Virus record (IMG/VR): IMGVR_UViG_2675903313_000009
Reading direction: 5' to 3' (one strand)
Length of the DNA stretch: 64,000 nt
Source of the DNA: a virus
Lineage: Duplodnaviria > Heunggongvirae > Uroviricota > Caudoviricetes
Part shown: piece by piece, positions 1 to 50,383 of the stretch
How the letters are laid out: each line of letters starts with the position of its first letter
Numbering within the stretch: position 1 is the stretch's first letter
The notes under the pieces: generated by a model
The model's database searches: none
Seen by the model: the letters and a program-made list of their open reading frames with translations, nothing else
Told to the model about the DNA's origin: nothing
Program-made: the position numbers and the translations under genes

Positions 1-3
1 GTC

Positions 4-711
4 TTGTCTGAAATGCCGAGAGCGACGAGAATTATCGCTCTCGGTGAGTTCTATTTTATCTCCCGAGGTTTCGATCTAATTCGATTTACCGAATACGAGC
101 TTGTTGATTCGGCCTATGAACGCTGTATTGTTGGCGAGTGTCTTGAGTCATGTGATCCTGATTACCAAGAGCAGGAAGTTAAGCGACTCAAACGTGCTGG
201 TTACACACCTCTTGAGATAGGAGCAGAAATTGAATCCTACAAGTTGCATGTGGGGCAGCCAGTCCAAACAGTCTTCCGCGTGGCCTACTGCGAGTTTCCA
301 ATCAAGGATAAATCTGGAGTAAAAGTCAGCGCCAAGCAGATTAGAGGGGTTTTTACTCATGCTGATTATATGGGATTAGGCATCGCAAGTTTTGCTTACC
401 TTTATCTCGTAGATAAGTATCAGTACTTGGTTTGCGATACGTTACAGACGGTAAAAGGCGCAACTCTTTGGGCTGTGAGTATGCGCAAACATGGACTGGT
501 CGAAATTTACGATACGAAGAACGAAAATTTTATAGAGGAATTGGGTGAGGATGCCTGTGGCGTAAGTGGTTTTATTCCGTGGGATATCGGTAAGTCTGAC
601 GGAGGCCAGATGCGAAGACGTGAAGAGTGGGGGACTAATAAAATCAATCTCACCCCAGGTGCTTGTACTCATATAGTGAACATTCTGACTAAACGATCTA
701 TGAATCAATAA
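4..711 (+). CDS. hypothetical protein; ORF reaches the window edge so the 5' end may be truncated
   Basis: 235-codon ORF on the dominant coding strand, immediately followed by an intrinsic terminator; no recognisable motif. Confidence 0.45.
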   Translation: MSEMPRATRIIALGEFYFISRGFDLIRFTEYELVDSAYERCIVGECLESCDPDYQEQEVKRLKRAGYTPLEIGAEIESYKLHVGQPVQTVFRVAYCEFPIKDKSGVKVSAKQIRGVFTHADYMGLGIASFAYLYLVDKYQYLVCDTLQTVKGATLWAVSMRKHGLVEIYDTKNENFIEELGEDACGVSGFIPWDIGKSDGGQMRRREEWGTNKINLTPGACTHIVNILTKRSMNQ

Positions 712-732
712 ACCCGCTACGGCGGGTTTTTT
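712..732 (+). terminator. rho-independent terminator
   Basis: stem acccgc/gcgggt with 4-nt loop followed by T6. Confidence 0.7.
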
Positions 733-812
733 GTTATTAAGCCCCCCCTATGTACCTATCATTAAACCTTTACACCGCAGCCGTAGGCATTTAGGCTATA
801 TCACATATAAGA

Positions 813-825
813 AAACAAGTTGTTT
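813..825. promoter_or_regulatory. O1 dyad motif AAACAA-N-TTGTTT upstream of parA (candidate operator)
   Basis: aaacaagttgttt about 35 bp upstream of the parA start; same dyad recurs at least 6 more times in the window. Confidence 0.45.
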
Positions 826-860
826 CAGACGATAATTATATACGCAAAGGGAACTCTCCA

Positions 861-1529
861 ATGACCAAGATCTTTGTGGTTGGCGGCACAAAGGGCGGGC
901 CTGGCAAATCCACCGTTGCCCAGCAAATTGCCGTTTGCCTGAAAGTCAAAAAGAAGAAGAAGGTTTATATTACCGATATAGATATTCAGCGCACGACAAC
1001 GAGCTGGTGTGAAGACCGTCGACAGAACGAAGACCTTGAGCTGATTCCTTTTGCATACGTTCAGGATGACATCATTAAGCACCTAAAATCGCTTCAGGGT
1101 AGAGCTGAGTTTGTAGTGGTAGATGCTGGTGGCTTCGACTCCGAAATTCAGCGACAAGCGATGCTGATGGCTGACGTTATCATTATCCCGCTGCGTCCTA
1201 AGCGTCGTGATTTGAAATCTTTACGTGACATCGATCCTATTATCGACAATGTTCGCAATGTAAACGATAAAGTGAAGGTCCGCGCGGTCATGAACCAGTG
1301 CCCGGCTTTGCCATCACAAGTGTCTCGCATTCTGGCGGCTAAAGAGATTGTTGAGACGTTTGGCATCGAGTCTGCGCCAGTCAATCTATATAACCGCAAC
1401 GTCTATGATGATGCGGAAGAGTCTGGTCGTTCTATCTTTGAAATGACCGGTAGCGAGCGCGACAAAAAGGCGGAAGCCGAGTTTGAAGAATTTGTAGATT
1501 ATCTGTTGAGTCTGGAGGAAGAAGAATAA
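861..1529 (+). CDS. parA: ParA/MinD-like partition ATPase
   Basis: deviant Walker A GGTKGGPGKST near N-terminus; about 220 aa; followed by small RHH-type partner with overlapping stop/start. Confidence 0.8.
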   Translation: MTKIFVVGGTKGGPGKSTVAQQIAVCLKVKKKKKVYITDIDIQRTTTSWCEDRRQNEDLELIPFAYVQDDIIKHLKSLQGRAEFVVVDAGGFDSEIQRQAMLMADVIIIPLRPKRRDLKSLRDIDPIIDNVRNVNDKVKVRAVMNQCPALPSQVSRILAAKEIVETFGIESAPVNLYNRNVYDDAEESGRSIFEMTGSERDKKAEAEFEEFVDYLLSLEEEE

Positions 1530-1888
1530 TGTCCATGAAAATGGGTGACCTAGCAAAGCGCAAAGAGCCTGATGCACCGGCTAAGAACACAACTCCTTTG
1601 CGCCAACCAGTCAGACCACAGGGACGCCCGACTCGTGGCAAAGAGAAAATTAAAAGCCGCACAATGTCACTGGAGGACGAATACTTCGAACTGCTGGAGA
1701 TGATGAAGTTCATCCCTCGCTTCGAGAAGTTCACTCGTTCTGACGTGATTCGTGCTGCTATTTTCCATCTTGCGGAGAAGACACCGCAGGAAATCGAGGA
1801 CATCGTGAAACTTAACGAGGCGATCACAGCTGCCGATGTCACGATGCGTACCGATGAAATCAAACGCGAGTTGATGAAGAAAGGTTAA
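1529..1888 (+). CDS. ribbon-helix-helix (ParG/CopG-like) DNA-binding partner of ParA
   Basis: 119 aa, basic disordered N-terminus then predicted beta-alpha-alpha segment (KSRTMSL...EDEYFELLEMMK...RSDVIRAAIFHL); start overlaps parA stop. Confidence 0.5.
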   Translation: MSMKMGDLAKRKEPDAPAKNTTPLRQPVRPQGRPTRGKEKIKSRTMSLEDEYFELLEMMKFIPRFEKFTRSDVIRAAIFHLAEKTPQEIEDIVKLNEAITAADVTMRTDEIKRELMKKG

Positions 1889-1893
1889 TTTTA

Positions 1894-2652
1894 TTGAGGT
1901 GCTGCTTGGCACCTCTTTCTATAGGTTCCCTAATGCTCTACAAATATATTGGAAGTGAAGATTCGCAAAAAGTGTTACGTAACCTCAAACGGTTTGTAGA
2001 GGACGGCACTATCTCTGCTAGCGCACCTTCTTCATTCAACGACCCATCAGAGTTCAAAGTTTCGATAACGATGGGAGGTACAGAAGTGGAGCACCGGAAA
2101 CACTTTGAAGACAATGGATGTAAGGATTTTTCCTTTGAAGACTGGGATGCTGTAGCTCCTGAAGCTGCAAAATCGTTGGCTGTGGATTTGCGGAAAGAAT
2201 CATTAGGGGCTTTTGGTGTGGTGTGCTTGTCACCAAACGAAGATAACATCTTGATGTGGTCACATTACTCAGTGTCGCATAAAGGTTTCTGCATAGGCTT
2301 TGATGATGATTTTGTTACCTCTATTGAGGGGTATCACAGCTTTGATAATGTGAAATATATACCTTCTGTTCCCGTGTTCGATGAAGTTACAGATGAGTTT
2401 AAGGTACTTTTTGATAAGCTCTTTTTCTACAAGCACGAATGCTGGAAATATGAGGAAGAACAAAGGGTTATTACTAAAAAAATAGGCGCTCAGGCATTTG
2501 ATAAGAAATATATTAGAGAGATCATTCTTGGACATAACGTTTCTCCTGAAGTAGAAGAATATGCCCGGACACAGCTAGACACGAGCATCGAGGTTTACAA
2601 AATGAGTACACCTGATGATGGTTATCTTCTTGTCAAAGAAAAGCTGAAGTAG
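1894..2652 (+). CDS. hypothetical accessory protein (motifs reminiscent of DUF2971-type proteins; unverified); alternative ATG start at 1933
   Basis: ORF with lower GC than replication genes; motifs NDPSEF and LMWSHYSVSHKGFCIGF; TTG start at 1894 or ATG at 1933. Confidence 0.5.
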   Translation: MRCCLAPLSIGSLMLYKYIGSEDSQKVLRNLKRFVEDGTISASAPSSFNDPSEFKVSITMGGTEVEHRKHFEDNGCKDFSFEDWDAVAPEAAKSLAVDLRKESLGAFGVVCLSPNEDNILMWSHYSVSHKGFCIGFDDDFVTSIEGYHSFDNVKYIPSVPVFDEVTDEFKVLFDKLFFYKHECWKYEEEQRVITKKIGAQAFDKKYIREIILGHNVSPEVEEYARTQLDTSIEVYKMSTPDDGYLLVKEKLK

Positions 2653-2718
2653 CTCCAGACTTTCCTCAAATGATTATGTTGGGCGCTTTTCTTATTGAAC
2701 TGGTTAGTGAGGCTAATA

Positions 2719-3891
2719 ATGGATTTGTTCTCAACCAAAATAGCAAAAAACAAGCTGCACGAATCTTTTAAACAGATTTATCAAGATAATACATATGCTC
2801 CAGTAAGAGAAGTGATACAGTCGTGGGGGCGTGGGTTACTGGAGCGTAGCGGTGAGCAGACTAAATTCGTTAAAGAGTTTCAGACAACCTTCAATTCCGC
2901 CTTATGGGAATTGTATCTGAACGAAATGTTTATTCGTCTCGATTATTCTGTCGACTACACAAAAGACAGTCCCGATTTCTGTGTTACTACACCGTCAGGC
3001 TACCAGTTTAACGTCGAAGCTGTGATATCAGATCGGCCACATAATCCACCTGCAGGTGTTCTTTTTAGCGAATCAAAATTCAAACATCAATCAACGCTAA
3101 AATTAATCGGAAAAATCAAAGACAAACATGATCTTTTTACAGGAGTTAATGGCAAAAAATTCCCGTACTCTACGATGTCTCATGTAGTTAATAAGCCGTT
3201 TGTTCTGGCGCTTGCACCCTTTGACTCCGATTTATCATTGTCTCAAAATAACACAATCATCAATCGAGTGTTGTTTGGCATTGAGGAACCTACCACCAGA
3301 AATTTGGTGACTGGCAGCCAAACTAAAGTTACCTCAATCAAAAAGAATGAAGACGTTGAAATTCCATTAGGTATATTTACTAACGACTCATATAAAGAAA
3401 TAAGTGCGGTTATTTTCTCCACCACCGGCACTTTTGGAAAAGCCGTGGTTCAAAGCGGTATCGGTAGATATGTAAGGTCAACACGATATCGAGCCATTGA
3501 TGTGAATGATTTCATCGCCAATGAAGGGATGAAAAACGAGGGAAAGCACACACAAAGGATAGGACCTGATCATTTCATCACTACATATCGGCATTTTTTA
3601 AATAACGAAGTCACTGGTGCGGATATTGTAGTTTGTCATTCCACTGCTCATGAAGAGACGCACTTTGACGGCCTTCATATTTACTACAATCCTTTTGCGA
3701 CAGTGCCACTGGACAGAAATATTTTCTTCCCCCCAGAGATAACTCATAATTTTTACGATATGGAAAAAGAACAGTCTGTTCAGAATCATCCTGATGGAGC
3801 GCTGGTATCTAGACAGGTTTTTGAACCAACTAGAGCACATTTTAGGTATATCATGAAACATTGGTTTCCAGGCTTTCTAAAAGATGTTTAA
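2719..3891 (+). CDS. hypothetical accessory protein (ORF open from 2695)
   Basis: ATG at 2719 preceded by GAGG 7 nt upstream; AT-rich coding sequence; no recognisable catalytic motif. Confidence 0.5.
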   Translation: MDLFSTKIAKNKLHESFKQIYQDNTYAPVREVIQSWGRGLLERSGEQTKFVKEFQTTFNSALWELYLNEMFIRLDYSVDYTKDSPDFCVTTPSGYQFNVEAVISDRPHNPPAGVLFSESKFKHQSTLKLIGKIKDKHDLFTGVNGKKFPYSTMSHVVNKPFVLALAPFDSDLSLSQNNTIINRVLFGIEEPTTRNLVTGSQTKVTSIKKNEDVEIPLGIFTNDSYKEISAVIFSTTGTFGKAVVQSGIGRYVRSTRYRAIDVNDFIANEGMKNEGKHTQRIGPDHFITTYRHFLNNEVTGADIVVCHSTAHEETHFDGLHIYYNPFATVPLDRNIFFPPEITHNFYDMEKEQSVQNHPDGALVSRQVFEPTRAHFRYIMKHWFPGFLKDV

Positions 3892-3914
3892 GCATCCTGC
3901 TGGTTGAATTTGGA

Positions 3915-3978
3915 ACCTGCTTCTGTATATAAATACTAAGTTACTTATTATTATTTATACGGAAGCAGGTCTTTTTCT
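3915..3978 (+). terminator. long imperfect hairpin plus T-run; copy 1 of a conserved hairpin element
   Basis: arms acctgcttctgtatataaata / tatttatacggaagcaggt followed by ctttttct; a near-identical element occurs at 50318-50383. Confidence 0.5.
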
Positions 3979-4079
3979 ATGCCAACTTCCCAGACACATT
4001 CCCTTCCGTTTCCACTTCCAAAAACTGCCACCAGTCGCTATCATCCGCTCATTGCAATAAGTAAGTAACTACCTATCTG

Positions 4080-4829
4080 GTGAGCCACATGAGCCAAATC
4101 TTTTTTGATACCATTGACAACGACCAGTACGACTTCATGACAGAGTGGAATACCGCTGTTATGGACAAGTGGGTCGCTGAAAACATTGGTTTGTCGCGCT
4201 GCAAAGACGAGGCTGAACTCTTCGAGACGAAGTGGTTTGATTACCGCGATATGCATCCTCTCATGGCCACCTGTCTGTTTACGGAGGCGTACAAACGTCA
4301 GTACTCAAATATCATGCTGACGCACGGTCGCGAACACTTTGAAACAGCTCCGTTCACCACCGGGTTAAAACGCCTGCCTTATCAGGAGTTGTCGACTGCC
4401 AATAAAACGTCGCTATGGAAAGCACGCCAGTTTGCTGATCGCTATTGCTGTTCATACGACTACTTTATCTCCACGGTTCTTTCCGCAGCTGCACGGCGTC
4501 TGTGGGACAAGTTGCCGCGCCCACAGCATTTATGGCAGCCAGAACTGGTTGAGATATTCGAAGAGAAATTATCCAGACGCGCAACAACCCGTCTGGATGA
4601 CTCTCTGGTTAGCTTTAAGCATATGGGAGACATGCAGTTCAACCCGATTCAGGAAAGCTATTTTGAGTGGATTCTGGAGCGTTTGCGCATCATCCCCCGC
4701 AGCAAGCGCATACGCGCAATTTTCTCTGCTATCTGGCTAATGGAAATCGTTCCAGAGCGCCTTATTTCCGCCCACTTTCCAGAAGAACTGGAAGAAGCAC
4801 GGCGGTTTATTGATCCCCTATCTAATTAA
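4080..4829 (+). CDS. hypothetical protein
   Basis: 249-codon ORF on coding strand; alternative ATG at 4089; no recognisable motif. Confidence 0.5.
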   Translation: MSHMSQIFFDTIDNDQYDFMTEWNTAVMDKWVAENIGLSRCKDEAELFETKWFDYRDMHPLMATCLFTEAYKRQYSNIMLTHGREHFETAPFTTGLKRLPYQELSTANKTSLWKARQFADRYCCSYDYFISTVLSAAARRLWDKLPRPQHLWQPELVEIFEEKLSRRATTRLDDSLVSFKHMGDMQFNPIQESYFEWILERLRIIPRSKRIRAIFSAIWLMEIVPERLISAHFPEELEEARRFIDPLSN

Positions 4830-4841
4830 CTAATACTAGAA

Positions 4842-4854
4842 AACAATTTGTTTA
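4842..4854. promoter_or_regulatory. O1 dyad motif (candidate operator) upstream of helicase gene
   Basis: agaaaacaatttgtttaaaa about 20 bp upstream of the ATG at 4873. Confidence 0.45.
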
Positions 4855-4872
4855 AAAAACAAAGGAAAGCAC

Positions 4873-6213
4873 ATGACCGAACTTTGCCATACAGGACGCG
4901 GGCTGTCCGAAGAGTTTGATGAAGATTTCCAGAACAGACTGACGGCATATTTTTGTCGTGATCACGAGTTTCTTACTCGTGCGGGAGATCTGGTTGTGCC
5001 TAGCCAATTTGCCAATGCGGCCAATGCCATATTGGTTAATATGGTTTCGGGCTATTACCGTATGTACAAGAGCGCGCCTTCTTCATCTGCGATTCTGGAT
5101 ATGCTTAAGCGCGCGAAACGCGATAAGACCATCCGTGAGGAACTCTTCCCGGATGTTGTTGCTGCGTTTAAGCGCATCCTTGCAGAAAAATTGTCTGATA
5201 CCACGTACATGGTTGACCAGGTATCCACATTCGCAAAAAGTGTAGCGTTTGATGATGCTCTGATTAAAGCTGCTGAACTGAAAGAGAAGGGCGACTTTCA
5301 GGGGGCGATGGCAATCATGGCCAAGGTTCAGCAGATAGGCTCGAACGAAGCGACCGGAATCTATGACTACTACACCTCCGCAAGTGAGCGATTGAAAGCG
5401 CGTGAATATGAGGCTTCAGAGGAGTATGTGCCAAACAGCATTACAACTGGACTCCCTCTGCTCGATAGGTTGCTGTACCAAAAAGGCTGGGCGAAGCGTG
5501 AAATGGTGCTCTTCATGGGGTTCGCTAAATCCGGCAAATCGACCGCAATGGGTGAGTTTTCCATAAACGCAACGCTTGCTGGCTACAATGTTCTGTATCT
5601 CTCGCTGGAGGTTCACACCACCATTTTATCCGACCGTTTTGATGCAAGATTGTCGGAGACAGAAATGTCCAAGCTGGTGGAACGGCGCGATGAGGTTCAT
5701 CGTAAGTTGGCAGAGTTGGGAGCCACGAAGGGGATTGGTAGTTTGTGGGTGGTTGAGCGTCCGTCAGGAAGTATGTCACCGGCAGATCTGGACCGTATGC
5801 TTAACAGCATGAAAGCCAACGGCATGGTGCCTGACATGGTTGTTGTCGACTACGCAGATTTGATGCGTGCCAGTTATGACCTTCGTGATGATCGCGCCAA
5901 CATTCGTAGTATCTACACCGATTTACGTGCTCTTTATGACAAGCATAACGTTGCTGGGATTACGGCATCGCAGACAAACCGTGAAGGTGGCGCGTCAGAA
6001 GTTGCCACAATGATGCACGCTGCCGACAACATCGAAAAAGTACGTATTGCTGACCTGGTAATAACGATCAACAAAACCGAAGAAGAAGAAGCGAAAGGAG
6101 AGGCTCGTCTCTACTTTGCTGGTTCACGTAACCAGCAGGGAGGGATCAGCATTCGCGTTAAACAAAACCTCGAACAAATGCGCTTCATTGAGCGAATCTT
6201 AGACGTTACCTAA
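4873..6213 (+). CDS. replicative DNA helicase (DnaB/T7 gp4-like RecA-fold)
   Basis: Walker A GFAKSGKST, Walker B MVVVDYADLM, arginine-finger-like TASQTNREG; conserved start context aaggaaagcacATG. Confidence 0.8.
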   Translation: MTELCHTGRGLSEEFDEDFQNRLTAYFCRDHEFLTRAGDLVVPSQFANAANAILVNMVSGYYRMYKSAPSSSAILDMLKRAKRDKTIREELFPDVVAAFKRILAEKLSDTTYMVDQVSTFAKSVAFDDALIKAAELKEKGDFQGAMAIMAKVQQIGSNEATGIYDYYTSASERLKAREYEASEEYVPNSITTGLPLLDRLLYQKGWAKREMVLFMGFAKSGKSTAMGEFSINATLAGYNVLYLSLEVHTTILSDRFDARLSETEMSKLVERRDEVHRKLAELGATKGIGSLWVVERPSGSMSPADLDRMLNSMKANGMVPDMVVVDYADLMRASYDLRDDRANIRSIYTDLRALYDKHNVAGITASQTNREGGASEVATMMHAADNIEKVRIADLVITINKTEEEEAKGEARLYFAGSRNQQGGISIRVKQNLEQMRFIERILDVT

Positions 6214-6294
6214 AAAATAAGCGTGGAGAACACCTCCACGCTTGATTCATTGGTGAAACAACTTTTCTTTTGCCAAACCACAAAAGAAAAACAC

Positions 6295-7476
6295 ATGAAC
6301 CTTTATATTATATCAACATTTAGGTTGGTCACAATATTGCCTATTAAAAGTGGAATTATCGTGAGCGAGCTGAAAGAGCTAATTACCGAATTAGATTTTG
6401 AACAATGGTTGGACACTGAAGGTATCGTTTATCGACGTGGAGGCGTGAGTGCTCGCGGTCGTGAAGTGAATATCAAGGAGTGTCCGGTATGTGGCAGCTC
6501 CAACTGGAAGGTATATTTCAATCTGACCAGTGGCGTCGGCAAATGCTTTGCTGGTGATCATCCCGAAGAGATTCAGTTCAATAAGCTGATCTTCCTCAAG
6601 CACTACAGCGGTAAATCACGACGACAGTTCGAGGAATATGTGCAGAACGCGCTGATCTCACAAGGATGGGCGCCGAAGAAGGAAGAGGTCGTGCTGGCCA
6701 GCAAGGTTGAACTCGAAGGGCCAGTAGCTCTCCCTCGACATTACGAACTCCCCATTGACGGTCGTCTTCCTGATTATCTGGTGGAGCGCCATATCTCCCC
6801 GGATCTGGCCAAATACTTTGATCTGCGTTACTGCGTCGAAGGCAAGCACGCATACGTCGATCCGTACACAGACCAGGTCAAAGGGCAGGTGTTTGATATG
6901 CGCATCCTGATACCGGTTTACGATCTGGATGGCGTGATGAAGACCTTCCAGGGGCGTGACATTACCGGTGCAGCAGAACGTCGCTACCTCTTTCCTATGC
7001 AGCTTCCAGCTTCAGGTAGGTTTCTCTACAACGGCCATAATGCAGTCGGCAAACAGACTGTAGTTGTCTGTGAGGGGGCGTTCGATGTTATGGGGGTCAA
7101 ACGAGCTATTTTTGACGAAGAAACATTACGTGATTACGTGGAACCAATAGGAACGTTCGGGATGCATCTATCTGGTAACACCACTCAGGATGCAGAAGAT
7201 CAGCTGGGCGCGTTCCTGACGCTCAAGGCGCGTGGGCTACGTAATGTGATTATGATGTGGGATAGTGAAAAGCAGGCTATACGCAACACTATGGCCGCAG
7301 CCAGGCGACTGAGCAGTATTGGTCTTAATGTGAAAATTGCATGTTTGGGCGAGGAAGGACTCGACCCCGGCGATGCGACCCCGGGGCAGATTATCAAAGC
7401 CTACTATTGCGCAAAACCTTACTCACGACAGCTTGAACTTTTAAGCAAGGTAAAAGGCATAGCTGCATTAGTTTGA
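6295..7476 (+). CDS. DNA primase (zinc ribbon plus TOPRIM-like); ORF open from 6223, alternative GTG start at 6361
   Basis: CPVCGSSNW...KCFAGDH zinc-binding motif, acidic VVVCEGAFDVMGV and MMWDSE segments; start context aaagaaaaacacATG. Confidence 0.6.
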   Translation: MNLYIISTFRLVTILPIKSGIIVSELKELITELDFEQWLDTEGIVYRRGGVSARGREVNIKECPVCGSSNWKVYFNLTSGVGKCFAGDHPEEIQFNKLIFLKHYSGKSRRQFEEYVQNALISQGWAPKKEEVVLASKVELEGPVALPRHYELPIDGRLPDYLVERHISPDLAKYFDLRYCVEGKHAYVDPYTDQVKGQVFDMRILIPVYDLDGVMKTFQGRDITGAAERRYLFPMQLPASGRFLYNGHNAVGKQTVVVCEGAFDVMGVKRAIFDEETLRDYVEPIGTFGMHLSGNTTQDAEDQLGAFLTLKARGLRNVIMMWDSEKQAIRNTMAAARRLSSIGLNVKIACLGEEGLDPGDATPGQIIKAYYCAKPYSRQLELLSKVKGIAALV

Positions 7477-8613
7477 ACCAGTATTAGTCACATACACATT
7501 GACCGAAAATGATTTAACTTCAGTATTGAAGTTGTCAGTCATTACCGCGAGGTAGGCATTTTTGGTATCTCTGAATTGCTTCAGGATGATTTGAACGTTA
7601 TCTGTGCAAACAAACGAGGTAGCCAGATTGCCTCCTTTCTCTGAAAAATCCTTCAGGAATGTGCAGTCAACTTTGCCATCATTAGCGGTGAAGGTAGCAT
7701 CATCACCCTGCCAGGTAAATGTAGCGTTAACGCCCTTATCAATGGATTTAGCAATAAGTCGCTGGGTGGCGGATTTTGTTTTGGCTTTGGAAGCCGGCGC
7801 TCGATATTTGCCGCTTTCTTTCAGTTCTGCAATGTAATCGCAGCCTCTTTTTTCTCCTTTATCGCAAGCAGTCTGATAAAGGTCGGCTGCTTTTTTATAG
7901 TCCTTTTTTACACCTTCCCCATTCTCATACATAATGCCAAGATTGGTTATGGCGTCGGCGTTTCCAAGTTCCGCTGCCTTTTTATACCACTTAACTGCTT
8001 CTGCATCATTGCGTTTAACGCCTAACCCATCATCGTATAGTATTCCTAATCCTATCATAGCTTCTGAACTGCCTTGGTCTGCCGCCTTTTTGTAATAAGT
8101 AAAAGCCTTTTTATAATTCTTTTTAACGCCTTTACCATATTGGTAATACGCCCCAAGAACTGAAGTTGCTTTAACATACCCGGCATCAGAGGCTAGTTTG
8201 AAGTATTTAATGGCGAGTGCATGATCTACTTTACCAAGCAACCCCTTTTGATAAATAGCACCAAGATTGTTGTAGGCTCTACCTTCACGAGCATCCCCCG
8301 CAAGTTTGTAGTACTCAACAGCTTTATTTAGGTCTTTATCTACACCCTCGCCAAATGTGTACATAACCCCAAGTGCATAATATGCTACTTTGTCTCCCTT
8401 TTCTGCAGCGAGATCAATCCACTTCTTGGCCTCAACTACATCCTTATCAAAACCATTGATACCATCAAAATAATTTGTCCCTAACTCACTTTGTGCTGCG
8501 GTATCCCCTGCGGTAGCGGCTTCTATCAGCGTTTGTTTATTGTCTGCGTTAACGAATCCAGAGCTAAAAAGCAAAGTTAATGCCAGCAACGATGAAGATT
8601 TTATGTATTTCAT
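7468..8613 (-). CDS. Sel1-repeat (TPR-like) secreted protein
   Basis: N-terminal signal peptide MKYIKSSSLLALTLLFSSGFVNA; about 7 repeats of G-x-G-V-x-K-D/N-x-x-K-A-x-x-W/Y-Y-K-x-A; opposite strand to neighbours. Confidence 0.8.
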   Translation of the reverse strand: MKYIKSSSLLALTLLFSSGFVNADNKQTLIEAATAGDTAAQSELGTNYFDGINGFDKDVVEAKKWIDLAAEKGDKVAYYALGVMYTFGEGVDKDLNKAVEYYKLAGDAREGRAYNNLGAIYQKGLLGKVDHALAIKYFKLASDAGYVKATSVLGAYYQYGKGVKKNYKKAFTYYKKAADQGSSEAMIGLGILYDDGLGVKRNDAEAVKWYKKAAELGNADAITNLGIMYENGEGVKKDYKKAADLYQTACDKGEKRGCDYIAELKESGKYRAPASKAKTKSATQRLIAKSIDKGVNATFTWQGDDATFTANDGKVDCTFLKDFSEKGGNLATSFVCTDNVQIILKQFRDTKNAYLAVMTDNFNTEVKSFSVNVYVTNTGSN

Positions 8614-8846
8614 ATTTTTTGTTCTGTTGATATAGGATGAACAGTTTAGACGCGGCAAGCGTCAAGTGTGCGAAAAAGGGTACTTAAATTTAGTTAATAT
8701 GTCAGCTTTGTTGATTTAGTTTATGGTCGGTAAAGTTACTAGGAAACTAATAACCATAAGAAATAGTACGCCATTTAATTATTGTGGCACTGCTCGTGTT
8801 TTGATTAACTAATACCTGCGATAAATATAAATAAAGGGAAGCCAAC

Positions 8847-9260
8847 ATGAGCAAAAATAAGCTGATTTTAACAGGAGCTTTATTGTCTTTGTTTGCTTTA
8901 GTGGGGTGTAAGCCTACAGACGAGAAGGCTATTGCTCTGGGCCAACAAGCAATTGCGGATGATATGAAAGATCCCACGTCGGTGATGTTTAGGAAAGATA
9001 AGTTTGTCAGGACTGATCATGACGATGGGAGTGTGACAGGCTTTGTGTGCGGAGAATTGAACGCCAAAAATGGCTTTGGTGCATACGTGGGCTATCACTC
9101 ATATGTTGTTGAACTCGAAATGAAGCCAAAGGGCATGTTTTCGAAAGGGGTGGTATACAAAATCCTATCGAAGTCGTTGGCACCTAATGATCCTCATGAC
9201 TTACAGCGTTATAAGCAGGTCTACAGAAAGATGTGCAACAGTGAGGCTGTAGCTCATTAA
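8847..9260 (+). CDS. lipoprotein (candidate superinfection-exclusion type)
   Basis: signal peptide with lipobox LVGC; 137 aa; divergent from the Sel1 gene. Confidence 0.65.
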   Translation: MSKNKLILTGALLSLFALVGCKPTDEKAIALGQQAIADDMKDPTSVMFRKDKFVRTDHDDGSVTGFVCGELNAKNGFGAYVGYHSYVVELEMKPKGMFSKGVVYKILSKSLAPNDPHDLQRYKQVYRKMCNSEAVAH

Positions 9261-12830: not shown

Positions 12831-13220
12831 AAACATATTGATAAGTATTTACTTACTTATCTTTTGTGTATAAGATGACTTTGTTTTCGTTGAGACGCGA
12901 CTGTTTGAACTTAAATACAAGTGCAAACGAAGAAGTCTATCTGGCAGTAGCCTAATAAGCCAAACACCAGCGAGGTCAGTTTCCAGCCTCGTTACCGAAA
13001 TGGGACACACTGAGCGAGTGTGATTGCAGAACGCAGGAGGGAACATTCATGTTCCCTCCGATGAAGTAACAGAATGGGCGGTTGGTATATTTTCAACTCC
13101 ATATGACTCCCGGATTCTTAGCCACTGACCGCCCATCCTGTTACGTCATTTTGTTCAATTATGTCGTTTATACTGGGTTAAAAAGCGGCGACGTAGCCCG
13201 GCTGGTATGGTTAGCCAGCA

Positions 13221-13342
13221 CACAACGTTGAGGCCATTACATTTTTATCAATTCTAAGGTTCTATTCACAGAGATACCGGCGAACGTTGATATGTAACAT
13301 GTTGGGCAAACATTCAATCGGAGTAGTGGCCTCAACGTTGTG
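13221..13342 (+). other. long inverted repeat (16-bp perfect stem, about 90-nt loop) upstream of tRNA cluster
   Basis: cacaacgttgaggcca pairs with tggcctcaacgttgtg; stem sequence resembles the hairpin after tRNA-Ser. Confidence 0.5.
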
Positions 13343-13608
13343 AAGACGGGATTGTTGTGTAGGTTTAACCACTGTTGCCATTGGTGCCTGTTTTCACAAC
13401 AAATGATTCCATACATCACATAGTATAAATTACAAAGTAGGTGCTGTCCTCAGAAACATCATCTACTTAAAGATTTTGCCTTCTACTATTGAGCGAAGTC
13501 GAAAGCGTCTGGCACTAACGAAAAGTGCAAGTAGCGGTGCGTTTCCTGGCAGAAACTAAACCGTCGCGATTGGCACTGTTGAGTAATAAATACTGGCAGT
13601 GCTGAATT

Positions 13609-13683
13609 GATGGTGTAGCTCAGCGGTAGAGCAGTTGGCTGTTAACCAACTGGTCGGTGGTTCGAATCCACCCACCATCGCCA
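13609..13683 (+). tRNA. tRNA-Asn (anticodon GUU)
   Basis: cloverleaf read by eye: acceptor GATGGTG/CACCATC, anticodon loop CTGTTAA, T-loop TTCGAAT, encoded CCA. Confidence 0.85.
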
Positions 13684-13688
13684 ATTTA

Positions 13689-13775
13689 GGGGAGTTAGTC
13701 CGTAGAGGTAGCGGTGTAGACTGTAAATCTACTGTCATGGCGACTCGGGTGGTTCGACTCCATCACTCCCCACCA
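13689..13775 (+). tRNA. tRNA-Tyr (anticodon GUA), class II with long variable arm
   Basis: acceptor GGGGAGT/ACTCCCC, anticodon stem GTAGA/TCTAC with loop CTGTAAA, T-loop TTCGACT, encoded CCA; D-arm not fully resolved. Confidence 0.7.
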
Positions 13776-13779
13776 AATT

Positions 13780-13855
13780 GCCGGTTTAGCTCAGTTGGTA
13801 GAGCAGTCGCTTTGTAAGCGAATGGCCAGCGGTTCAAGTCCGTTAACCGGCACCA
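13780..13855 (+). tRNA. tRNA-Thr (anticodon UGU)
   Basis: acceptor GCCGGTT/AACCGGC, D-arm GCTC-AGTTGGTA-GAGC, anticodon loop TTTGTAA, T-loop TTCAAGT, encoded CCA. Confidence 0.8.
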
Positions 13856-13863
13856 ACACAACA

Positions 13864-13939
13864 GGTAAGAGCATTGGGCGAATCGGCGATACTGACCCAC
13901 AAGGCCGTAAATCGATAGAGTCAGACCAGTGCTCTTACC
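13864..13939 (+). other. inverted-repeat hairpin between tRNA-Thr and tRNA-Ser (14-bp stem)
   Basis: ggtaagagcattgg pairs with ccagtgctcttacc (one G-U), loop about 48 nt. Confidence 0.5.
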
Positions 13940-14045
13940 GTTGTGATGAATGCACAGGCTGATGTGCCGCAACTACAGTAGTGCGCGCTTTGCGGGGCTT
14001 GCTACAACCCTGTGTCGGAGTTCAGTACCGACCATCACAATAGCT

Positions 14046-14132
14046 GGAGAGTAGGGAGCATGGTGCTCAAGCGGTCTTGAAAACCGTTCCATTGTGCAAA
14101 CGATGATGGTTCGATTCCATTACTCTCCGCCA
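14046..14132 (+). tRNA. tRNA-Ser (anticodon UGA), class II
   Basis: acceptor GGAGAGT/ACTCTCC, anticodon stem GCGGT/ACCGT with loop CTTGAAA, long variable arm, T-loop TTCGATT, encoded CCA. Confidence 0.7.
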
Positions 14133-14134
14133 GA

Positions 14135-14212
14135 CACAGCGTTGAGCGGTTTGGCCTTTTAATCAACTCGATTAAGACTCCGCTAACATAAACCAGACCG
14201 CTCAACGCTGTG
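14135..14212 (+). other. inverted-repeat hairpin after tRNA-Ser (16-bp perfect stem)
   Basis: cacagcgttgagcggt pairs with accgctcaacgctgtg, loop 46 nt; stem sequence related to the 13221 hairpin. Confidence 0.5.
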
Positions 14213-14289
14213 ATAGATAATTACGGCAGACGTTCTTAACCATAGCTTGCTAACATCTTAGCAACACTTTTTTCAGCGCAAAATTCAAA

Positions 14290-14309
14290 GGGGCTTCGGC
14301 CCCTTTTTT
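14290..14309. terminator. bidirectional rho-independent terminator
   Basis: ggggc-ttcg-gcccc stem flanked by A-run and T6; sits between the tRNA operon and the convergent minus-strand gene. Confidence 0.8.
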
Positions 14310-14324
14310 GTTGAACAGTGCAAT

Positions 14325-15587
14325 TTACTTTACATAGTCGCCCAGTTTTAATATTTCGCGCTTATATTCTTTAACCATGCTACTGGATTCAGTATAAATT
14401 CGATTTAAAAGATTATCGCTATCTTTATTCTCATTTATCTTAATGAGTGATAATTTAAATTCATAGTCATCAAATGCCACAATCAAATGGTGGCCTGGGA
14501 TTATATCTTCGTCACTCTTGAAGTATATATCTTCAAGTATGTAATCTAGTTGATTAGATTTTCTTTTCTCGATGTAATCTTCAGCCATAGCTATTACATC
14601 ATTCCTGTCATTTAACCTGTTTTTTTCGGAAGGCACATCTTCGTAATGTTGCACGATTGAACAACCAATAAGGCGTGGGATGTAAACGTCAAAATGAGTA
14701 ACTCTATCATTCGCGGTTTTAAGTTGTTCCTCAAAGTAGTTTCTTACATGTAAAGGCAACTTCTCAAAGTAATCATTAATTATAGGAGAACAAGGAGTTT
14801 TATAATTCATAAGAACCGACGGTACGAGCTGTGGGCGTCGAAACATCCAGTCCCTTTTAACGTCCGATGGAACATAATAACTTTTAATGATATTATCAAA
14901 ATAATTTATCATTCGAGATTTGAATATTTTATTGAATCTAAGGTTTATGAATGTATCCAGATAAGGCATATTTGAATAAGCATCATCAAAAAATATTTCA
15001 TCATTGAAAAAATCATATTTATTCAATAAACAACACAGTTTTTCCGAATTAATATGTTCACAATAATCGATTTTTAATCCAAAGATAGCAATGATCAACT
15101 TCATCTGAGGTGGGATTTTAAAAATTAATTGTGATACATACGCTCTTTTTTCCTTGAGACATTCCCCATCAATATAAAATGAACTATCCACATACTCAAA
15201 TATATTAATAATATGCTTCACATACTGTATTACCTCATGCTGTTTTACCAATGGGTAATAGAGTCTATGTAACTCATCGCTGTTTAAATTAATTTTGTGT
15301 TTATCGATAATTTGTTTTGCAAGAAGACATAACGCATCATGTTGATTTAATAAGGAATCAAACCATTGTTTAAATGCACTCTTTCGCATTTCGAACAATG
15401 ATTCAGTTGTTAATTGAAGGGCTGAAAAAGCTGCTTTTGCACTTTTTCTCGCTTCGTAGGCATTCCATGCTGTTGCTATAAAAGCAAATGCTGTAGCCAA
15501 TGTTCCAACAGTTTGACCATTTAAAACAACCCAATCCCAAAAAATAACGGTGAGCAGTAGTATAATAATGAAAATTAAAAAAGGCAT
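14325..15587 (-). CDS. hypothetical membrane-anchored protein, strongly AT-rich accessory gene
   Basis: 420 aa, N-terminal TM helices then large soluble domain; much lower GC than flanking genes; opposite strand. Confidence 0.6.
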   Translation of the reverse strand: MPFLIFIIILLLTVIFWDWVVLNGQTVGTLATAFAFIATAWNAYEARKSAKAAFSALQLTTESLFEMRKSAFKQWFDSLLNQHDALCLLAKQIIDKHKINLNSDELHRLYYPLVKQHEVIQYVKHIINIFEYVDSSFYIDGECLKEKRAYVSQLIFKIPPQMKLIIAIFGLKIDYCEHINSEKLCCLLNKYDFFNDEIFFDDAYSNMPYLDTFINLRFNKIFKSRMINYFDNIIKSYYVPSDVKRDWMFRRPQLVPSVLMNYKTPCSPIINDYFEKLPLHVRNYFEEQLKTANDRVTHFDVYIPRLIGCSIVQHYEDVPSEKNRLNDRNDVIAMAEDYIEKRKSNQLDYILEDIYFKSDEDIIPGHHLIVAFDDYEFKLSLIKINENKDSDNLLNRIYTESSSMVKEYKREILKLGDYVK

Positions 15588-15761
15588 GTATGTATTTCAC
15601 TCTACTAACTATAAATTATTAGGCTAATGTTAACCAAACAATGCCTTAATTAATAGATTGATCGAGGCTTTAATAGCTTTATAATGCAGACTGCAAAGAT
15701 AAGTATGCACATACCTATCTTCTTTGTAAGTAAAGTTGCATATCAATTCTATGAGGTAACA

Positions 15762-16007
15762 ATGACGATCACTATCTACGGACGAGATAACTGCTCATAC
15801 TGCAAACGTGCGGTCGAGCTGGCGAAGCAACTAAAGGGACATGGCTACGGTGATTATGAGTACATCGACATCACCACTGCCGGTATCAACAAGGAAAAAC
15901 TAAGTGAAATTGTTGGTAAACCGGTAGAGACTATCCCCCAGGTGCTGATCGATGGCCAGCCGATTGGCGGATACACAGAACTGGCTGCATACGTCAGCAC
16001 CCTCTGA
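15762..16007 (+). CDS. glutaredoxin/NrdH-like redoxin
   Basis: 81 aa with CSYC active-site motif and C-terminal TIPQVLIDGQPIGG; ORF open from 15684. Confidence 0.75.
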   Translation: MTITIYGRDNCSYCKRAVELAKQLKGHGYGDYEYIDITTAGINKEKLSEIVGKPVETIPQVLIDGQPIGGYTELAAYVSTL

Positions 16008-16012
16008 TTTTA

Positions 16013-16034
16013 ACGGCTCACAGGAGCCGTTTTT
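16013..16034 (+). terminator. rho-independent terminator
   Basis: stem acggctc/gagccgt followed by T5. Confidence 0.65.
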
Positions 16035-16086
16035 ATTCCCACCAAACTCACTCCCATTTCCCTTAAAATTCAAAAAACAACGTCAA

Positions 16087-16119
16087 AATGATTCCATACC
16101 TACTATGTATGGAATCATT
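16087..16119. other. candidate site-specific recombination core site (13-bp inverted arms, 7-bp spacer)
   Basis: AATGATTCCATAC-ctactat-GTATGGAATCATT, perfect arms, 100 bp upstream of the tyrosine recombinase gene. Confidence 0.5.
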
Positions 16120-16217
16120 ACTGAAAATGAGTTACTTTTACTCTTGATCCTATAAGAATCTATGCCTAATATACTGTTTACTTATACAGTGAATCGGCGT
16201 AACTCGGTGATTGTCAT

Positions 16218-17321
16218 ATGAAAAATAGCTTTGACAGAGCACGCGCTGCGGAGAACACCTCAAAAGAGGCGATTGAGTATCTCGAAAGAGCATCTCAAAT
16301 GCAGGCCGTTATGATCTCGCAGGTCAGCAATGACATGAGATTCTCGGACGCATTCATGTTATTCACTCGCTTATCTCTGCTGATAACAAGACGTCGGCCA
16401 GAGATCGCTGTTCATTGTATTTTGATACATGTTTTGCCGCACATTGCCGATGTAAAAGTAAGTGACATTAATAGGTTCATGGTGAACCAACTGGTCAACC
16501 CACTAATACTGGATGGCAAAATTGTTATGGGCCGCCGCGTTTTCTCTCTGATGAAGCAGTTCCTTAGCTGGTGCGCCTTCCAGGGGATGATAGACGTGTC
16601 ACCGTTAAACGATATGTCACTAAACAAAGTTGCCGGTGGCGCAAAGCCCACACCTCGCGAGCGGAAGCTGACCGACGCAGAGGTATGGGTGTTCTGGAAT
16701 ATATGGGACTACTTCAATGTGTGCGCTGGTACAAAATGGGCGGCCAGGCTGTGTCTTGTATCCGCAAGACGACCTGACGAAGTACTGCGGGCTAAAAAAA
16801 GTGAGTTCAATCTTAAGCGTGGGGTTTGGAATCAAGGCAAGAGGAACAAATCTGCCCGTGAGCATTCGCTGCCTTTAAGCACATTAATGCGCACATGTAT
16901 TGAAGAGTTGTTCGAATACGGTAAAGGCAGCCAGTGGCTCGTGCCTTCGAATAAAAAAATCGGGAAAGACCTTCCTATGTCTAAAGTGGCAATAGCCCAG
17001 GCATTACGTCGTATCCTGGAACGACCAGAACTGATGGAGCTTGAGCCATTTACACCCCGAGACTTGCGCCGTACTGCGCGTAGTTACTTCCCAGCATTAG
17101 GCATAAGCCAGGAGGTATCACGCAAAATCATGAACCACAGTCTTGAGGGGATAGATCGAGTCTACGACCGGCACGATTATATGGACGAGATGCGAGACGC
17201 CTTAGAAAGTTTCTCGACGTACATCGCATCAATCGTAGAGCAACCGGATTTAGACGAAATTGACCACAAATTCAAGGGAGATCGTCTATCAACAGAGCTT
17301 ATTCGTGTAAATTTTTCATAG
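16218..17321 (+). CDS. tyrosine recombinase (integrase/resolvase family)
   Basis: catalytic-domain motifs LVSARRPDE, TPRDLRRTARSYF and HSLEGIDRVYDRHDY (R...H-x-x-R...Y). Confidence 0.8.
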   Translation: MKNSFDRARAAENTSKEAIEYLERASQMQAVMISQVSNDMRFSDAFMLFTRLSLLITRRRPEIAVHCILIHVLPHIADVKVSDINRFMVNQLVNPLILDGKIVMGRRVFSLMKQFLSWCAFQGMIDVSPLNDMSLNKVAGGAKPTPRERKLTDAEVWVFWNIWDYFNVCAGTKWAARLCLVSARRPDEVLRAKKSEFNLKRGVWNQGKRNKSAREHSLPLSTLMRTCIEELFEYGKGSQWLVPSNKKIGKDLPMSKVAIAQALRRILERPELMELEPFTPRDLRRTARSYFPALGISQEVSRKIMNHSLEGIDRVYDRHDYMDEMRDALESFSTYIASIVEQPDLDEIDHKFKGDRLSTELIRVNFS

Positions 17322-32770: not shown

Positions 32771-33864
32771 CAAAGCAGTTTGAGACTATTGGAAAGGATC
32801 TCAATCATCTTGATATTTTCAGGCGTCAAATTCTGCGAAAGTTCGGTTATCTTGTTGATAATGTTCTGTTTGGCATCAATTTCCCCAGCTTTCTCATCTG
32901 GTTTTTTGGGTTCGATGTCTTCAGGTTTTGGCGGTGCGACTTTGAGTTTTGGATTGCGGCTGTGAATCTGGATATAGATCGACCGCCCTCGCTTAATCTC
33001 GCTGTATTCGAGATAGCCCAAATCTTGGAGAGCTTTTAAGCCGTTACGTATAGTCTGATTCTGCGAGCTGACATTCCTGCTACTCAAATTGAGTCGCGCA
33101 CGTAATCGAGCAAGCGATACCGGCGCAGGCTTGGTTGGAAGACTTTCGATGAAGGTGTACAGAGCCTGTGCTGTTTCTTTGCGTGGTAGCTTATTGATAA
33201 CCTTTAACTGCAAAAGAACCTTATGGTCAAAGCGATATAGTTCGGCCAGCTTCGGTTCTGCATAGAACACCACCGTATCTTTCTGCTCGTTGTAGTCCAC
33301 GCTATTGATGAGGTGCACCATCAGAAGCGAGATCTTGTTAGAGCCGTCGACATTCTTTTCTTCATACGTTCTCTGAAAAGACAGAGTTGTACGCATGATC
33401 TTCAAAAGACTGTTTGTAAGCCGGTCGCGGAGTGTTTTGCGGATCTGTGACGATGGATAGCCACAAAACTTCGCAAATTTCGTGATGCTTAACTCGACAC
33501 GACCGTTAGGTTCGCCGTATTCTGCCAGCGAACGCACAACGCCCACCCACGTTTTGAAATCATGATCCATGTCGAGACGAGGACCGGTTATCTTGATATC
33601 GGAATAACCTTCAGAACGGGCTACTTCGAGCTGAACAAGCTCCTTTGAAGCATCGATCTCATTTGGCTTATTACGCTTGCTGTATTTTGTCCCCTTGAGC
33701 GTGGGCACGAACAACCCCAGCCGCATCAACGCAATTGGTTGGACTGTATTGTTGCTATTAGGGACAAGTTCCCCTGTGTACAATTCAAGGGAACCTTCTT
33801 CAAAGTTGTCGAGATTATCTTCTACTTCTTTGTTATTTTTACCTTTTTTATTTTTTGTGGACAT
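32770..33864 (-). CDS. repA: iteron-binding replication initiator (RepA/Rep3-like)
   Basis: 364 aa basic protein flanked on both sides by iterons; ATG at 33864 preceded by aaagg; ORF open to 33984. Confidence 0.7.
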   Translation of the reverse strand: MSTKNKKGKNNKEVEDNLDNFEEGSLELYTGELVPNSNNTVQPIALMRLGLFVPTLKGTKYSKRNKPNEIDASKELVQLEVARSEGYSDIKITGPRLDMDHDFKTWVGVVRSLAEYGEPNGRVELSITKFAKFCGYPSSQIRKTLRDRLTNSLLKIMRTTLSFQRTYEEKNVDGSNKISLLMVHLINSVDYNEQKDTVVFYAEPKLAELYRFDHKVLLQLKVINKLPRKETAQALYTFIESLPTKPAPVSLARLRARLNLSSRNVSSQNQTIRNGLKALQDLGYLEYSEIKRGRSIYIQIHSRNPKLKVAPPKPEDIEPKKPDEKAGEIDAKQNIINKITELSQNLTPENIKMIEILSNSLKLL

Positions 33865-33884
33865 GTGGACACCTTTGTCATTCA

Positions 33885-33986
33885 ACCGCTGACAGCATAC
33901 TTGATTTGCCGCTGGCAGCATACCAAAAACAGTTGGCAGCATACGGCGAACCGTTGACAGACTATCAATTACCGCTGGTAGCATAC
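33885..33986. repeat. origin-proximal iterons (incC-like), 3 intact plus 2 degenerate
   Basis: accgctgacagcatac, gccgctggcagcatac, accgctggtagcatac plus partial copies, immediately upstream of repA. Confidence 0.75.
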
Positions 33987-47991: not shown

Positions 47992-48549
47992 ATGACAACG
48001 ATTGTTGCAGGCATCGATATCGAGTCTACGGGACTGGATTTCCTTGCTGGTCATAAAATTATTGAAATCGCAATTACCCGCTATGAACTGGAGACACAGA
48101 GACATATTGATAGTCTGGAGATGCGTTTTAACCCTCGCAGAAACATAGATCCGAAAGCTCAAGCCGTTCATGGCATTTCATTGGAACAGCTCGCAGCTGA
48201 ACCTTTGTTGTCAAATCATGCCAGCGAAATTGGCGCTTATATGGGGGCATGTAGTGTGTGGGTTGCTCATAACGGCGAAGCATTTGATATACCATTTATT
48301 CGACACGAGTTTTCAGGGTATGGAGTAAGACTGCCAGAAGTTCCTGTTATAGATACTATGTTATCGGGATTGTGGGCCACAGAAGACGGTAAACGTCCCC
48401 GCCTTGAAGAGTTGGCCTTCTCTCTTGGCTTTATATACGATCATGCCAAAGCACATAGTGCCTTATATGACACAAACTTAATGATGCAATGCTTCTTTAA
48501 GGCACGTAATAAGTACGGATTTTTTAAATTACCCTCTGAAATTGTGTAA
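47992..48549 (+). CDS. DnaQ-like 3'-5' exonuclease (DEDDh)
   Basis: Exo I GIDIESTGLD, Exo II HNGEAFDIPFI, Exo III AHSALYDT. Confidence 0.85.
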   Translation: MTTIVAGIDIESTGLDFLAGHKIIEIAITRYELETQRHIDSLEMRFNPRRNIDPKAQAVHGISLEQLAAEPLLSNHASEIGAYMGACSVWVAHNGEAFDIPFIRHEFSGYGVRLPEVPVIDTMLSGLWATEDGKRPRLEELAFSLGFIYDHAKAHSALYDTNLMMQCFFKARNKYGFFKLPSEIV

Positions 48550-48555
48550 AACAAA

Positions 48556-48592
48556 AGCCTGCTTTAAAGAGAGTTTGAAGCAGGCTTTCTTT
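48556..48592 (+). terminator. rho-independent terminator
   Basis: stem gcctgctt/aagcaggc followed by tttcttttaaa. Confidence 0.65.
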
Positions 48593-48709
48593 TAAAGAAC
48601 AGTCGCCTTTCAATCATTTCCTGCCTGTATTTAATACTTTTCCGCCTGATAGGTTTAGTCAAAATGCAGCCATCGAAACGCAAATGTAACCAAACAGAAG
48701 GAGACTTAC

Positions 48710-50317: not shown

Positions 50318-50383
50318 AGCCTGCTTCTGTATATATAAATAACCACATATTAATTATTAATATACGGAAGCAGGCTGTTTTGT
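50318..50383 (+). terminator. long imperfect hairpin plus T-run; copy 2 of the conserved hairpin element
   Basis: arms agcctgcttctgtatat / atatacggaagcaggct followed by gttttgt; arms nearly identical to the 3915 element. Confidence 0.5.

Follow-up and report, generated by a model that had tools for sequence, protein, structure and literature searches.

The DNA analyzed here, a 64,000-nucleotide stretch of viral origin (IMG/VR record IMGVR_UViG_2675903313_000009; hereafter, the window), can be assigned by sequence identity to an SSU5-type phage-plasmid of Escherichia coli. The slot between its partition (par) operon and a conserved long hairpin (positions 1894 to 3978) was found to carry two genes, the first encoding a DUF2971 protein and the second encoding a protein assigned to the anti-phage family PD-T7-5. 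The reading that we prefer, with a probability of about 0.78, is that the slot holds two independent single-gene defense systems arranged head to tail and that relatives of the element swap this cargo or leave the slot empty. An earlier note on this DNA had proposed an acquired accessory module, possibly for defense or anti-defense, and the observation of such a module was confirmed by the match to PD-T7-5 and by a match to the candidate defense family PDC-S31 with a DarT-like predicted fold. The defense interpretation is supported by the family memberships, by the predicted folds and conserved motifs, by the variability of the slot and its empty-site allele, and by the independent distributions of the two genes. 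By analogy, it may also draw on published protection results, in which PD-T7-5 alone protected E. coli and the DUF2971 protein Aristaios protected Lactococcus.

Identity of the two cargo genes

The downstream gene (gene 2; 2719..3891, + strand; 390 amino acids [aa]) was identified as PD-T7-5 on the basis of its sequence. The PADLOC PD-T7-5 model (PDLC04110) matched it over its full length with an E value of 2e-139 and 462 bits, residues 9 to 379 of a 398-aa reading being aligned to positions 1 to 342 of the 346-position profile, and the statement that this reading frame had no assignable motif was thereby overturned. The start of gene 2 (MDLFSTK, 2719) was kept in all 44 aligned homologs, and the exact protein was present on 419 contigs. 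PD-T7-5 was described as a validated single-gene system from E. coli UMB0934 (protein RRM82777.1; Vassallo et al. 2022, Nat Microbiol), and the clone, which was selected on T7, contained one 1173-nt open reading frame (ORF) flanked by 143 nt on its upstream side and 119 nt on its downstream side (PMC9519451). In window terms, the cloned fragment would extend from ~2576 to 4010, taking in both a promoter-like site (2576..2603) and the hairpin. The type protein and gene 2 share the ORF length of 1173 nt, the host species, the organization as one gene preceded by an upstream region of its own, and a weak Hjc/PD-(D/E)xK signal near the N terminus (residues ~60 to 107); the nuclease evidence obtained by Vassallo et al. 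with HHpred was itself weak (Hjc, 78% probability, residues 63 to 107; PMC9519451).

Gene 2 comprises a putative N-terminal PD-(D/E)xK-like domain and a large C-terminal region, the ~230 residues of which show strong conservation and match no known fold. In the N-terminal part, E64, P85-D86, and E100 were invariant and fell on the helix and strands expected of a PD-(D/E)xK core, and two further residues, K128 and K136, were invariant on the next helix. From these sequence features, the assignment of gene 2 as a nuclease is plausible but not secure. A profile search of PDB sequences with the PD-T7-5 family found nothing. Residues 1 to 241 also aligned with positions 108 to 347 of the 452-position model of PD-T7-1, another family of Vassallo et al. 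(2022), with an E value of 2e-42, and therefore the nuclease and middle regions of the two families are homologous. PD-T7-1 differs from gene 2 in having an extra N-terminal segment of ~107 residues and another C terminus, and the score of the PD-T7-5 model for gene 2 was far above that of the PD-T7-1 model (462 versus 143 bits).

The upstream gene (gene 1; 1933..2652, + strand; 239 aa) matched Pfam DUF2971 (PF11185) with 30 bits against a cutoff of 22, as well as four models of the PADLOC candidate system PDC-S31 (PDLC04990, E value of 4e-38, and three more). The earlier note had linked the protein to DUF2971 by the motifs NDPSEF and LMWSHYSVSHKGFCIGF; this link proved correct, and both motifs coincided with the top-conserved columns of the family (N36, D37, P38, W109, S110, H111, Y112, H116, and G118). 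Both of the ORFs that it reported, of 252 and 391 aa, are real and lie on the + strand, and their lengths become 239 and 390 aa when the conserved starts are used. Gene 1 begins at ATG 1933 (MLYKY...) in homologs and in the PGAP annotation of a near-identical plasmid; the alternative TTG start at 1894, which gives the longest ORF (1894-2652, 252 aa), was rejected because it lies in a hairpin (1896-1915) and homologs begin with MLYKY.

Among 55 aligned sequences, the conserved columns of gene 1 comprised an FNDP motif, MWSHY (Y112), H116, and Y173-E174-x-E176-x-R178. Y112, the motif II Tyr within MWSHY, and E174, in YEEEQR, were invariant, and E176, the second Glu of an ExE motif, was conserved in at least 90% of the sequences. 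Gene 1 thus contains the ADP-ribosyltransferase (ART) core motifs, the motif II Tyr and the motif III ExE, given in a 2025 survey that reported ART motifs in DUF2971 and compared the family with DarT and AbiGi (PMC12522546). The AlphaFold2 model of gene 1 had a confidence score (pLDDT) of 95.7, its best fold matches were DarT DNA ADP-ribosyltransferases, and the predicted structure belongs to the ADP-ribosyltransferase fold. Gene 1 most likely encodes a DarT-like, NAD+-dependent ADP-ribosyltransferase. DarT differs from gene 1 in sequence, with an identity of only 9 to 16%, and gene 1 has large helical inserts relative to DarT at residues ~51 to 93; when PDB sequences were searched with a profile of the DUF2971 family, nothing was found, including no DarT at an E value of ≤1. 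Membership in the DarTG system was considered and rejected on two grounds, namely, that there is no adjoining DarG macrodomain antitoxin and that no DarT sequence model matched, DUF2971 being the sole Pfam match at an E value of ≤0.1. Neither the proteins encoded in the flanks, when scanned with Pfam, nor the called genes of 10 contexts of the exact protein included a macrodomain; the neighbors of gene 1 are the par gene and PD-T7-5.

Aristaios, the DUF2971 protein of a Lactococcus plasmid, is a validated single-gene abortive-infection system (PMC11381338) and the only DUF2971 protein with a published phage phenotype. It resembles gene 1 in its DUF2971 domain, its ART-like predicted fold, its single-gene organization, and its carriage on a mobile element; it differs in its length (316 aa) and Gram-positive host, and the likeness holds at the family level only. 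The papers found on the DUF2971 family contained no biochemistry, and the literature search returned no paper on PDC-S31.

Phages use ART-fold enzymes in host takeover, and gene 1, which is encoded by a phage-type element, might accordingly be read as an offensive or anti-defense ART that acts on host proteins or immune components during lytic growth, like T4 Alt, ModA, or ModB. The prediction that 18% of DUF2971 proteins are secreted effectors (PMC12522546) also favors such a role. The location of the gene does not, since it stands in the plasmid maintenance region, not among early lytic genes, and other alleles sit within 6 nt of the par operon. Moreover, the slot alternates with defense genes, the PDC-S31 model of PADLOC derives from defense islands, the family member Aristaios is a defense gene, and the closest folds are those of DarT, which has a nucleic acid target and acts in defense, rather than those of Alt or the Mod enzymes. 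An offensive function for gene 1 is therefore very improbable, and the anti-defense option that had been offered alongside defense finds no support. Profile searches mapped neither of the two proteins to a core phage function.

One two-gene system or two single-gene systems

Hidden Markov models (HMMs) were built from the alignments of both genes and used on 79 loci containing PD-T7-5 relatives from diverse bacteria. A DUF2971 gene within 5 kb was found at 0 of these 79 loci, and an obligate two-gene system was rejected because the DUF2971 HMM gave no matches in them. A tblastn search of PLSDB detected DUF2971 in 309 records and PD-T7-5, at an identity of at least 60%, in 14. One 52%-identical DUF2971 allele stands alone in the SSU5-type slot. 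Another 52%-identical allele, listed in 138 index blocks, stands alone in P2-like prophages (L173 to L176, 3501-4226) between the tail fiber assembly and sheath genes, an interval that, from the P2 map, we take to be the Z/fun locus. Z/fun is a known defense hotspot of P2 (PMC13586616). Conversely, in one relative of the window (L155, 7358-8933), a 76%-identical PD-T7-5 allele is preceded by a DUF2971 remnant of ~110 nt, in which an internal deletion has brought the start, ATGCTC, up against the 3' end. Because of the absence of DUF2971 neighbors at the 79 loci, the lone DUF2971 alleles, the L155 allele, and the published single-gene clone, the evidence favors two independent single-gene systems over one two-gene system. 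The word "pair" used for the two genes is thus apt for their physical adjacency and not for a joint function.

Several observations weigh against this reading. With regard to gene 2, the nuclease motif is without the canonical lysine (E-A-V, residues 100 to 102), Foldseek detected no PDB structure matching the gene 2 model at an E value of ≤0.001, and Pfam searches with gene 2 and its 44 homologs returned only a spurious Peptidase_M1 match (E values of 0.006 to 0.08) and no covering model. The protein tested by Vassallo et al., RRM82777.1, may be identical to the window allele or may be a ~76%-identical sister allele of E. coli. With regard to gene 1, PDC-S31 is only a candidate system, and the anti-phage role of this DUF2971 subfamily is a prediction drawn by analogy. 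Consensus scans for promoters and short terminators yielded site numbers at or below the shuffled expectation and constitute weak evidence. Finally, every intact PD-T7-5 allele found in SSU5-like elements directly follows a DUF2971 allele, with a spacer of 66 to 69 nt, and the paired proteins diverge in step (99/99, 80/73, and 76-77/54-58% identity).

This constant arrangement and in-step divergence, together with the presence of the pair in 10 of the 10 contexts inspected for the exact protein, would be expected of a cooperative two-gene defense, in which, for example, phage DNA marked or arrested by the ART becomes the target of the PD-T7-5 nuclease or in which one protein regulates the other. 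Cooperation is difficult to reconcile with the validation of PD-T7-5 as a lone clone, with the lack of a DUF2971 neighbor at the loci of other bacteria, with the solitary alleles of the same DUF2971 subfamily in the SSU5 slot and at P2 Z/fun, and with the retention of PD-T7-5 in L155 despite the deletion in DUF2971; in addition, physical linkage alone predicts codivergence. The in-step divergence is explained by physical linkage, yet it leaves some room for coupling, and a cooperative system is considered unlikely.

If the two genes act as independent systems, read-through out of the par operon would account for the expression of gene 1 on the resident plasmid, and its product, upon infection, would modify a nucleic acid or an essential protein, so that phage replication stops in the style of abortive infection. 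Gene 2 would have its own promoter region; its C-terminal region may sense infection or gate the nuclease, and the gated N-terminal PD-(D/E)xK-like nuclease would then cut DNA. The cassette as a whole may move among phage-plasmid backbones through homologous recombination in the conserved flanks.

Variable cargo between conserved flanks

The slot was surveyed in 80 IMG/VR relatives plus SSU5 and Cyrano, of which 78 with both flanks were scored, the window itself being excluded. The left edge of the slot is the stop codon of a 119-aa par-operon gene, and the distance from this stop to the start of the right-flank phrog_2500 gene ranged from 192 to 2210 bp among the 78 relatives and the window. 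About 25 of these loci contained DUF2971 (PDC-S31) alleles in seven clusters, one of them inverted. Another 26 loci contained a 272-aa GIY-YIG protein, encoded on the opposite strand, that matched PD-T4-3; 6 contained a 568-aa KAP NTPase (PDC-S49); 18 contained a 357/374-aa protein without a PADLOC or Pfam match; about 8 contained membrane-protein pairs like SSU5_035/036; and 4 were empty, with the hairpin only. PD-T7-5 was present in 4 slot loci in addition to the window. The long hairpin was retained in the empty sites (L093, L132, L137, and L141). The flanks were conserved, with identities of 90 to 100% for the par gene and 85 to 99.6% for phrog_2500; the cargo was variable and enriched in known defense genes (PD-T4-3, PDC-S31 alleles, PDC-S49, and PD-T7-5); and an empty-site allele existed. 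The par-to-hairpin slot is a defense hotspot. The same cassette was found in backbones with differing left flanks, carrying either TacT/TacA or two hypothetical genes, which fits an exchange by homologous recombination in the flanks.

The 357/374-aa protein, encoded on the opposite strand (for example, L133 7288-8361 [-] and L153 8203-9327 [-]), was the third commonest occupant of the slot (18 of 78) and is a candidate new defense gene. The pairs of predicted membrane proteins, of ~214 to 255 aa plus ~136 to 141 aa (SSU5 [L001] 2685-3729, L096 7403-8579, L139 7362-8406, and L148 3370-4540), had no significant family match; in SSU5, the pair stands upstream of the DUF2971 gene. In a 240-kb E. 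coli plasmid (CP182204.1; L011 7651-9452), the phrog_2500 gene is replaced by an IS21-family element (rve plus IstB) situated immediately after PD-T7-5, which suggests a cointegrate or a rearranged phage-plasmid.

The position of the module directly after parA and its partner gene raises the possibility of a role in plasmid maintenance, in which a toxic ART, a nuclease, or both would bring about postsegregational killing or addiction beside the partition operon and phage defense would be incidental. Two further points are in line with this possibility, namely, that a TacT/TacA toxin-antitoxin pair lies just upstream of parA in relatives and that DarT-like enzymes are toxins of toxin-antitoxin systems (PMC12522546). 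Against it, Pfam searches revealed no antitoxin-like gene, macrodomain, or small partner among the neighbors. The slot is empty in four relatives, 95% of E. coli backbones persist without the pair, the alternative cargo PD-T4-3 is a validated phage defense, and addiction would be a poor explanation for the DUF2971 homolog that is carried by an integrated P2 prophage. Maintenance by addiction is thus a most unlikely function of the cargo, and defense remains the preferred reading.

The slot resembles the Z/fun and cos-proximal loci of P2 and the hotspots of P4 (Rousset et al. 2022; PMC13586616), which likewise have conserved flanks, variable, defense-dominated, low-G+C cargo, and empty sites, and P2-like prophages share with the SSU5 slot type a 52%-identical DUF2971 gene. 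It differs from the P2 and P4 hotspots in belonging to an extrachromosomal phage-plasmid, in its location at the 3' end of a partition operon, and in being bounded by a terminator hairpin. A 2025 DefenseFinder preprint reported that SSU5 clade J phage-plasmids of E. coli and Shigella carry PrrC, PD-T4-3, PD-T7-5, or restriction-modification systems; the slot is undescribed in that preprint, and the word "hotspot" is absent from it (bioRxiv 10.1101/2025.09.12.675607). No paper describing the par-to-hairpin slot as a hotspot was found in the literature searched.

The element and the surroundings of the slot

The E. coli plasmid pA98_p4 (CP142588.1) was 99.9% identical to window positions 1 to 9000, and many ~110-kb nonmobilizable E. 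coli plasmids shared 95 to 98% identity with the same region. The matches of the phages SSU5, Cyrano, PhiR41_1, and CMS-2020a were confined to the flanks of the two-gene segment. From the identity to pA98_p4 and these flank matches, the window is therefore identified, at the sequence level, as an SSU5-type phage-plasmid. Of 5426 complete E. coli genomes, 250 (4.6%) contained a backbone segment (4080-6213), on plasmids every time. Both cargo genes were present in 13 of these 250 genomes and in 11 of ~724 related plasmids in PLSDB, and universal conservation of the pair in relatives, a possibility that would have spoken against its acquisition, was thus refuted. In agreement with the lower G+C content first noted for the segment, its value (1894-3978) was 39.7%, compared with 46.1% in the left flank and 48.5% in the right flank; when every 2085-bp window of the 64 kb is ranked, the segment falls in the lowest 2.9%.

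The first ORF of the window (4-711, + strand) matched phrog_3307. It is followed by parA (861..1529, + strand), which encodes a type Ib ParA/MinD-like partition ATPase and belongs to the conserved left flank of the slot; the assignment made in the earlier note was confirmed by Pfam (MipZ, AAA_31, CbiA, and ParA) and by phrog_164 (ParA-like; E value of 4e-51). The start of the 119-aa gene (1529..1888, + strand) overlaps the parA stop, and its product, a full-length match to phrog_5111 with 90 to 100% identity across the 80 IMG/VR relatives, is presumed to be the centromere-binding partner. Its "parG" label could not be confirmed in the same way, as it rests on size and position, and no match was found in Pfam or in a PDB sequence search. 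The homolog of this gene in Cyrano (CYRAN_29; L002 2276-2635) is annotated as a "RelE/ParE putative toxin," a label that finds no support here, Pfam and PADLOC having given no toxin match; CYRAN_30 of Cyrano ("hypothetical") is a DUF2971 protein.

A short G+C-rich hairpin followed by TTTCT (1896..1915, + strand), recognized by its match to a terminator-like consensus only, lies between the par operon and gene 1, and a related short hairpin stands before the cargo in L155. The promoter-like site mentioned above (2576..2603, + strand; TAGACA-16-CAAAAT), found by consensus scan, is embedded in the 3' end of gene 1 and precedes gene 2 by 116 nt. The long hairpin (3912..3972, + strand) has an AT-rich loop and is followed by CTTTTTCT. 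By RNA folding (free energy of -29.4 kcal/mol; z = -6.4 versus shuffles) and by its conservation, it is an intrinsic terminator that forms the conserved boundary on the right side of the slot; its occurrence in 205 PLSDB records, compared with 11 for the two genes, bore out its initial description as a conserved terminator closing the segment. A second copy (CCTGCTTC...GAAGCAGG) was found at 50320-50374, downstream of an ORF at 49703-50296, and a shorter relative was found at 48549-48593; related phages contain as many as 4 copies, and these long hairpins are probably a family of element-specific terminators. An Rfam scan of positions 700 to 4400 returned subthreshold noise only. To the right of the slot are the phrog_2500 gene (4080..4829, + strand; E value of 9e-113), a DnaB-like helicase gene (4873-6213, + strand), and a primase gene (6223-7476, + strand). 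A Rep3-type plasmid initiator is encoded at 32773-33984 (- strand), ~30 kb from the slot, and therefore the "replication genes" adjoining the slot are the helicase and primase genes, not the initiator.

When the 64 ORFs of the window were scanned with PADLOC, PD-T7-5 and PDC-S31 were the strongest matches by far. The same scan also gave matches to PDC-S48 (E value of 2e-20), DEDDh, LmuB-like, mad2/mad3, and methyltransferase models, of which the DEDDh and LmuB-like matches probably reflect a polymerase exonuclease and an SbcC-like gene. The G+C minimum of the window (34.9%) falls in an island at 13045-17099 that contains a 420-aa ORF without a family match (14328-15587, - strand), a glutaredoxin gene (15684-16004), a tyrosine recombinase gene (16218-17318), and inverted repeats at 14135-14212 and 14440-14473; this island may be another cargo or recombination site. 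In a second low-G+C patch, a gene at 7468-8658 (- strand) encodes a Sel1-repeat protein whose N terminus resembles a signal sequence, and it is variable cargo too, because it is missing at that position in Cyrano, L010, and L013.

The novelty of these results is low, because the occurrence of PD-T7-5 in SSU5-type phage-plasmids had been listed in the 2025 preprint; they amount to a known system together with a member of a candidate family, in a further example of a familiar type of locus, and current concepts are unchanged by them. A more far-reaching view, which we regard as unlikely, would hold that the DUF2971 ART and PD-T7-5 form a coevolving, coupled unit in SSU5-type phage-plasmids, that the slot is a dedicated site for the hot swapping of defenses, and that its unassigned cargo represents new anti-phage systems. 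If this were true, coupling might, for instance, mean that ADP-ribosylated phage DNA triggers the nuclease or serves as its substrate or that each gene covers the escape routes of the other, and the 357/374-aa protein and the pairs of membrane proteins would be new anti-phage systems. With respect to two independent single-gene systems, the analysis settles the nature of the pair as one known, validated E. coli defense gene and one gene from a family with one validated relative and credible DarT-like chemistry. It also provides evidence for the shuttling of one DUF2971 subfamily between the P2 Z/fun hotspot and the SSU5 slot and describes a natural stack of PD-T7-5 and DUF2971 in which additivity or synergy is measurable. 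The phage-plasmid family, which is clinically widespread, thereby gains a cleanly bounded defense slot, the unassigned cargo families of which are candidates for defense screens.

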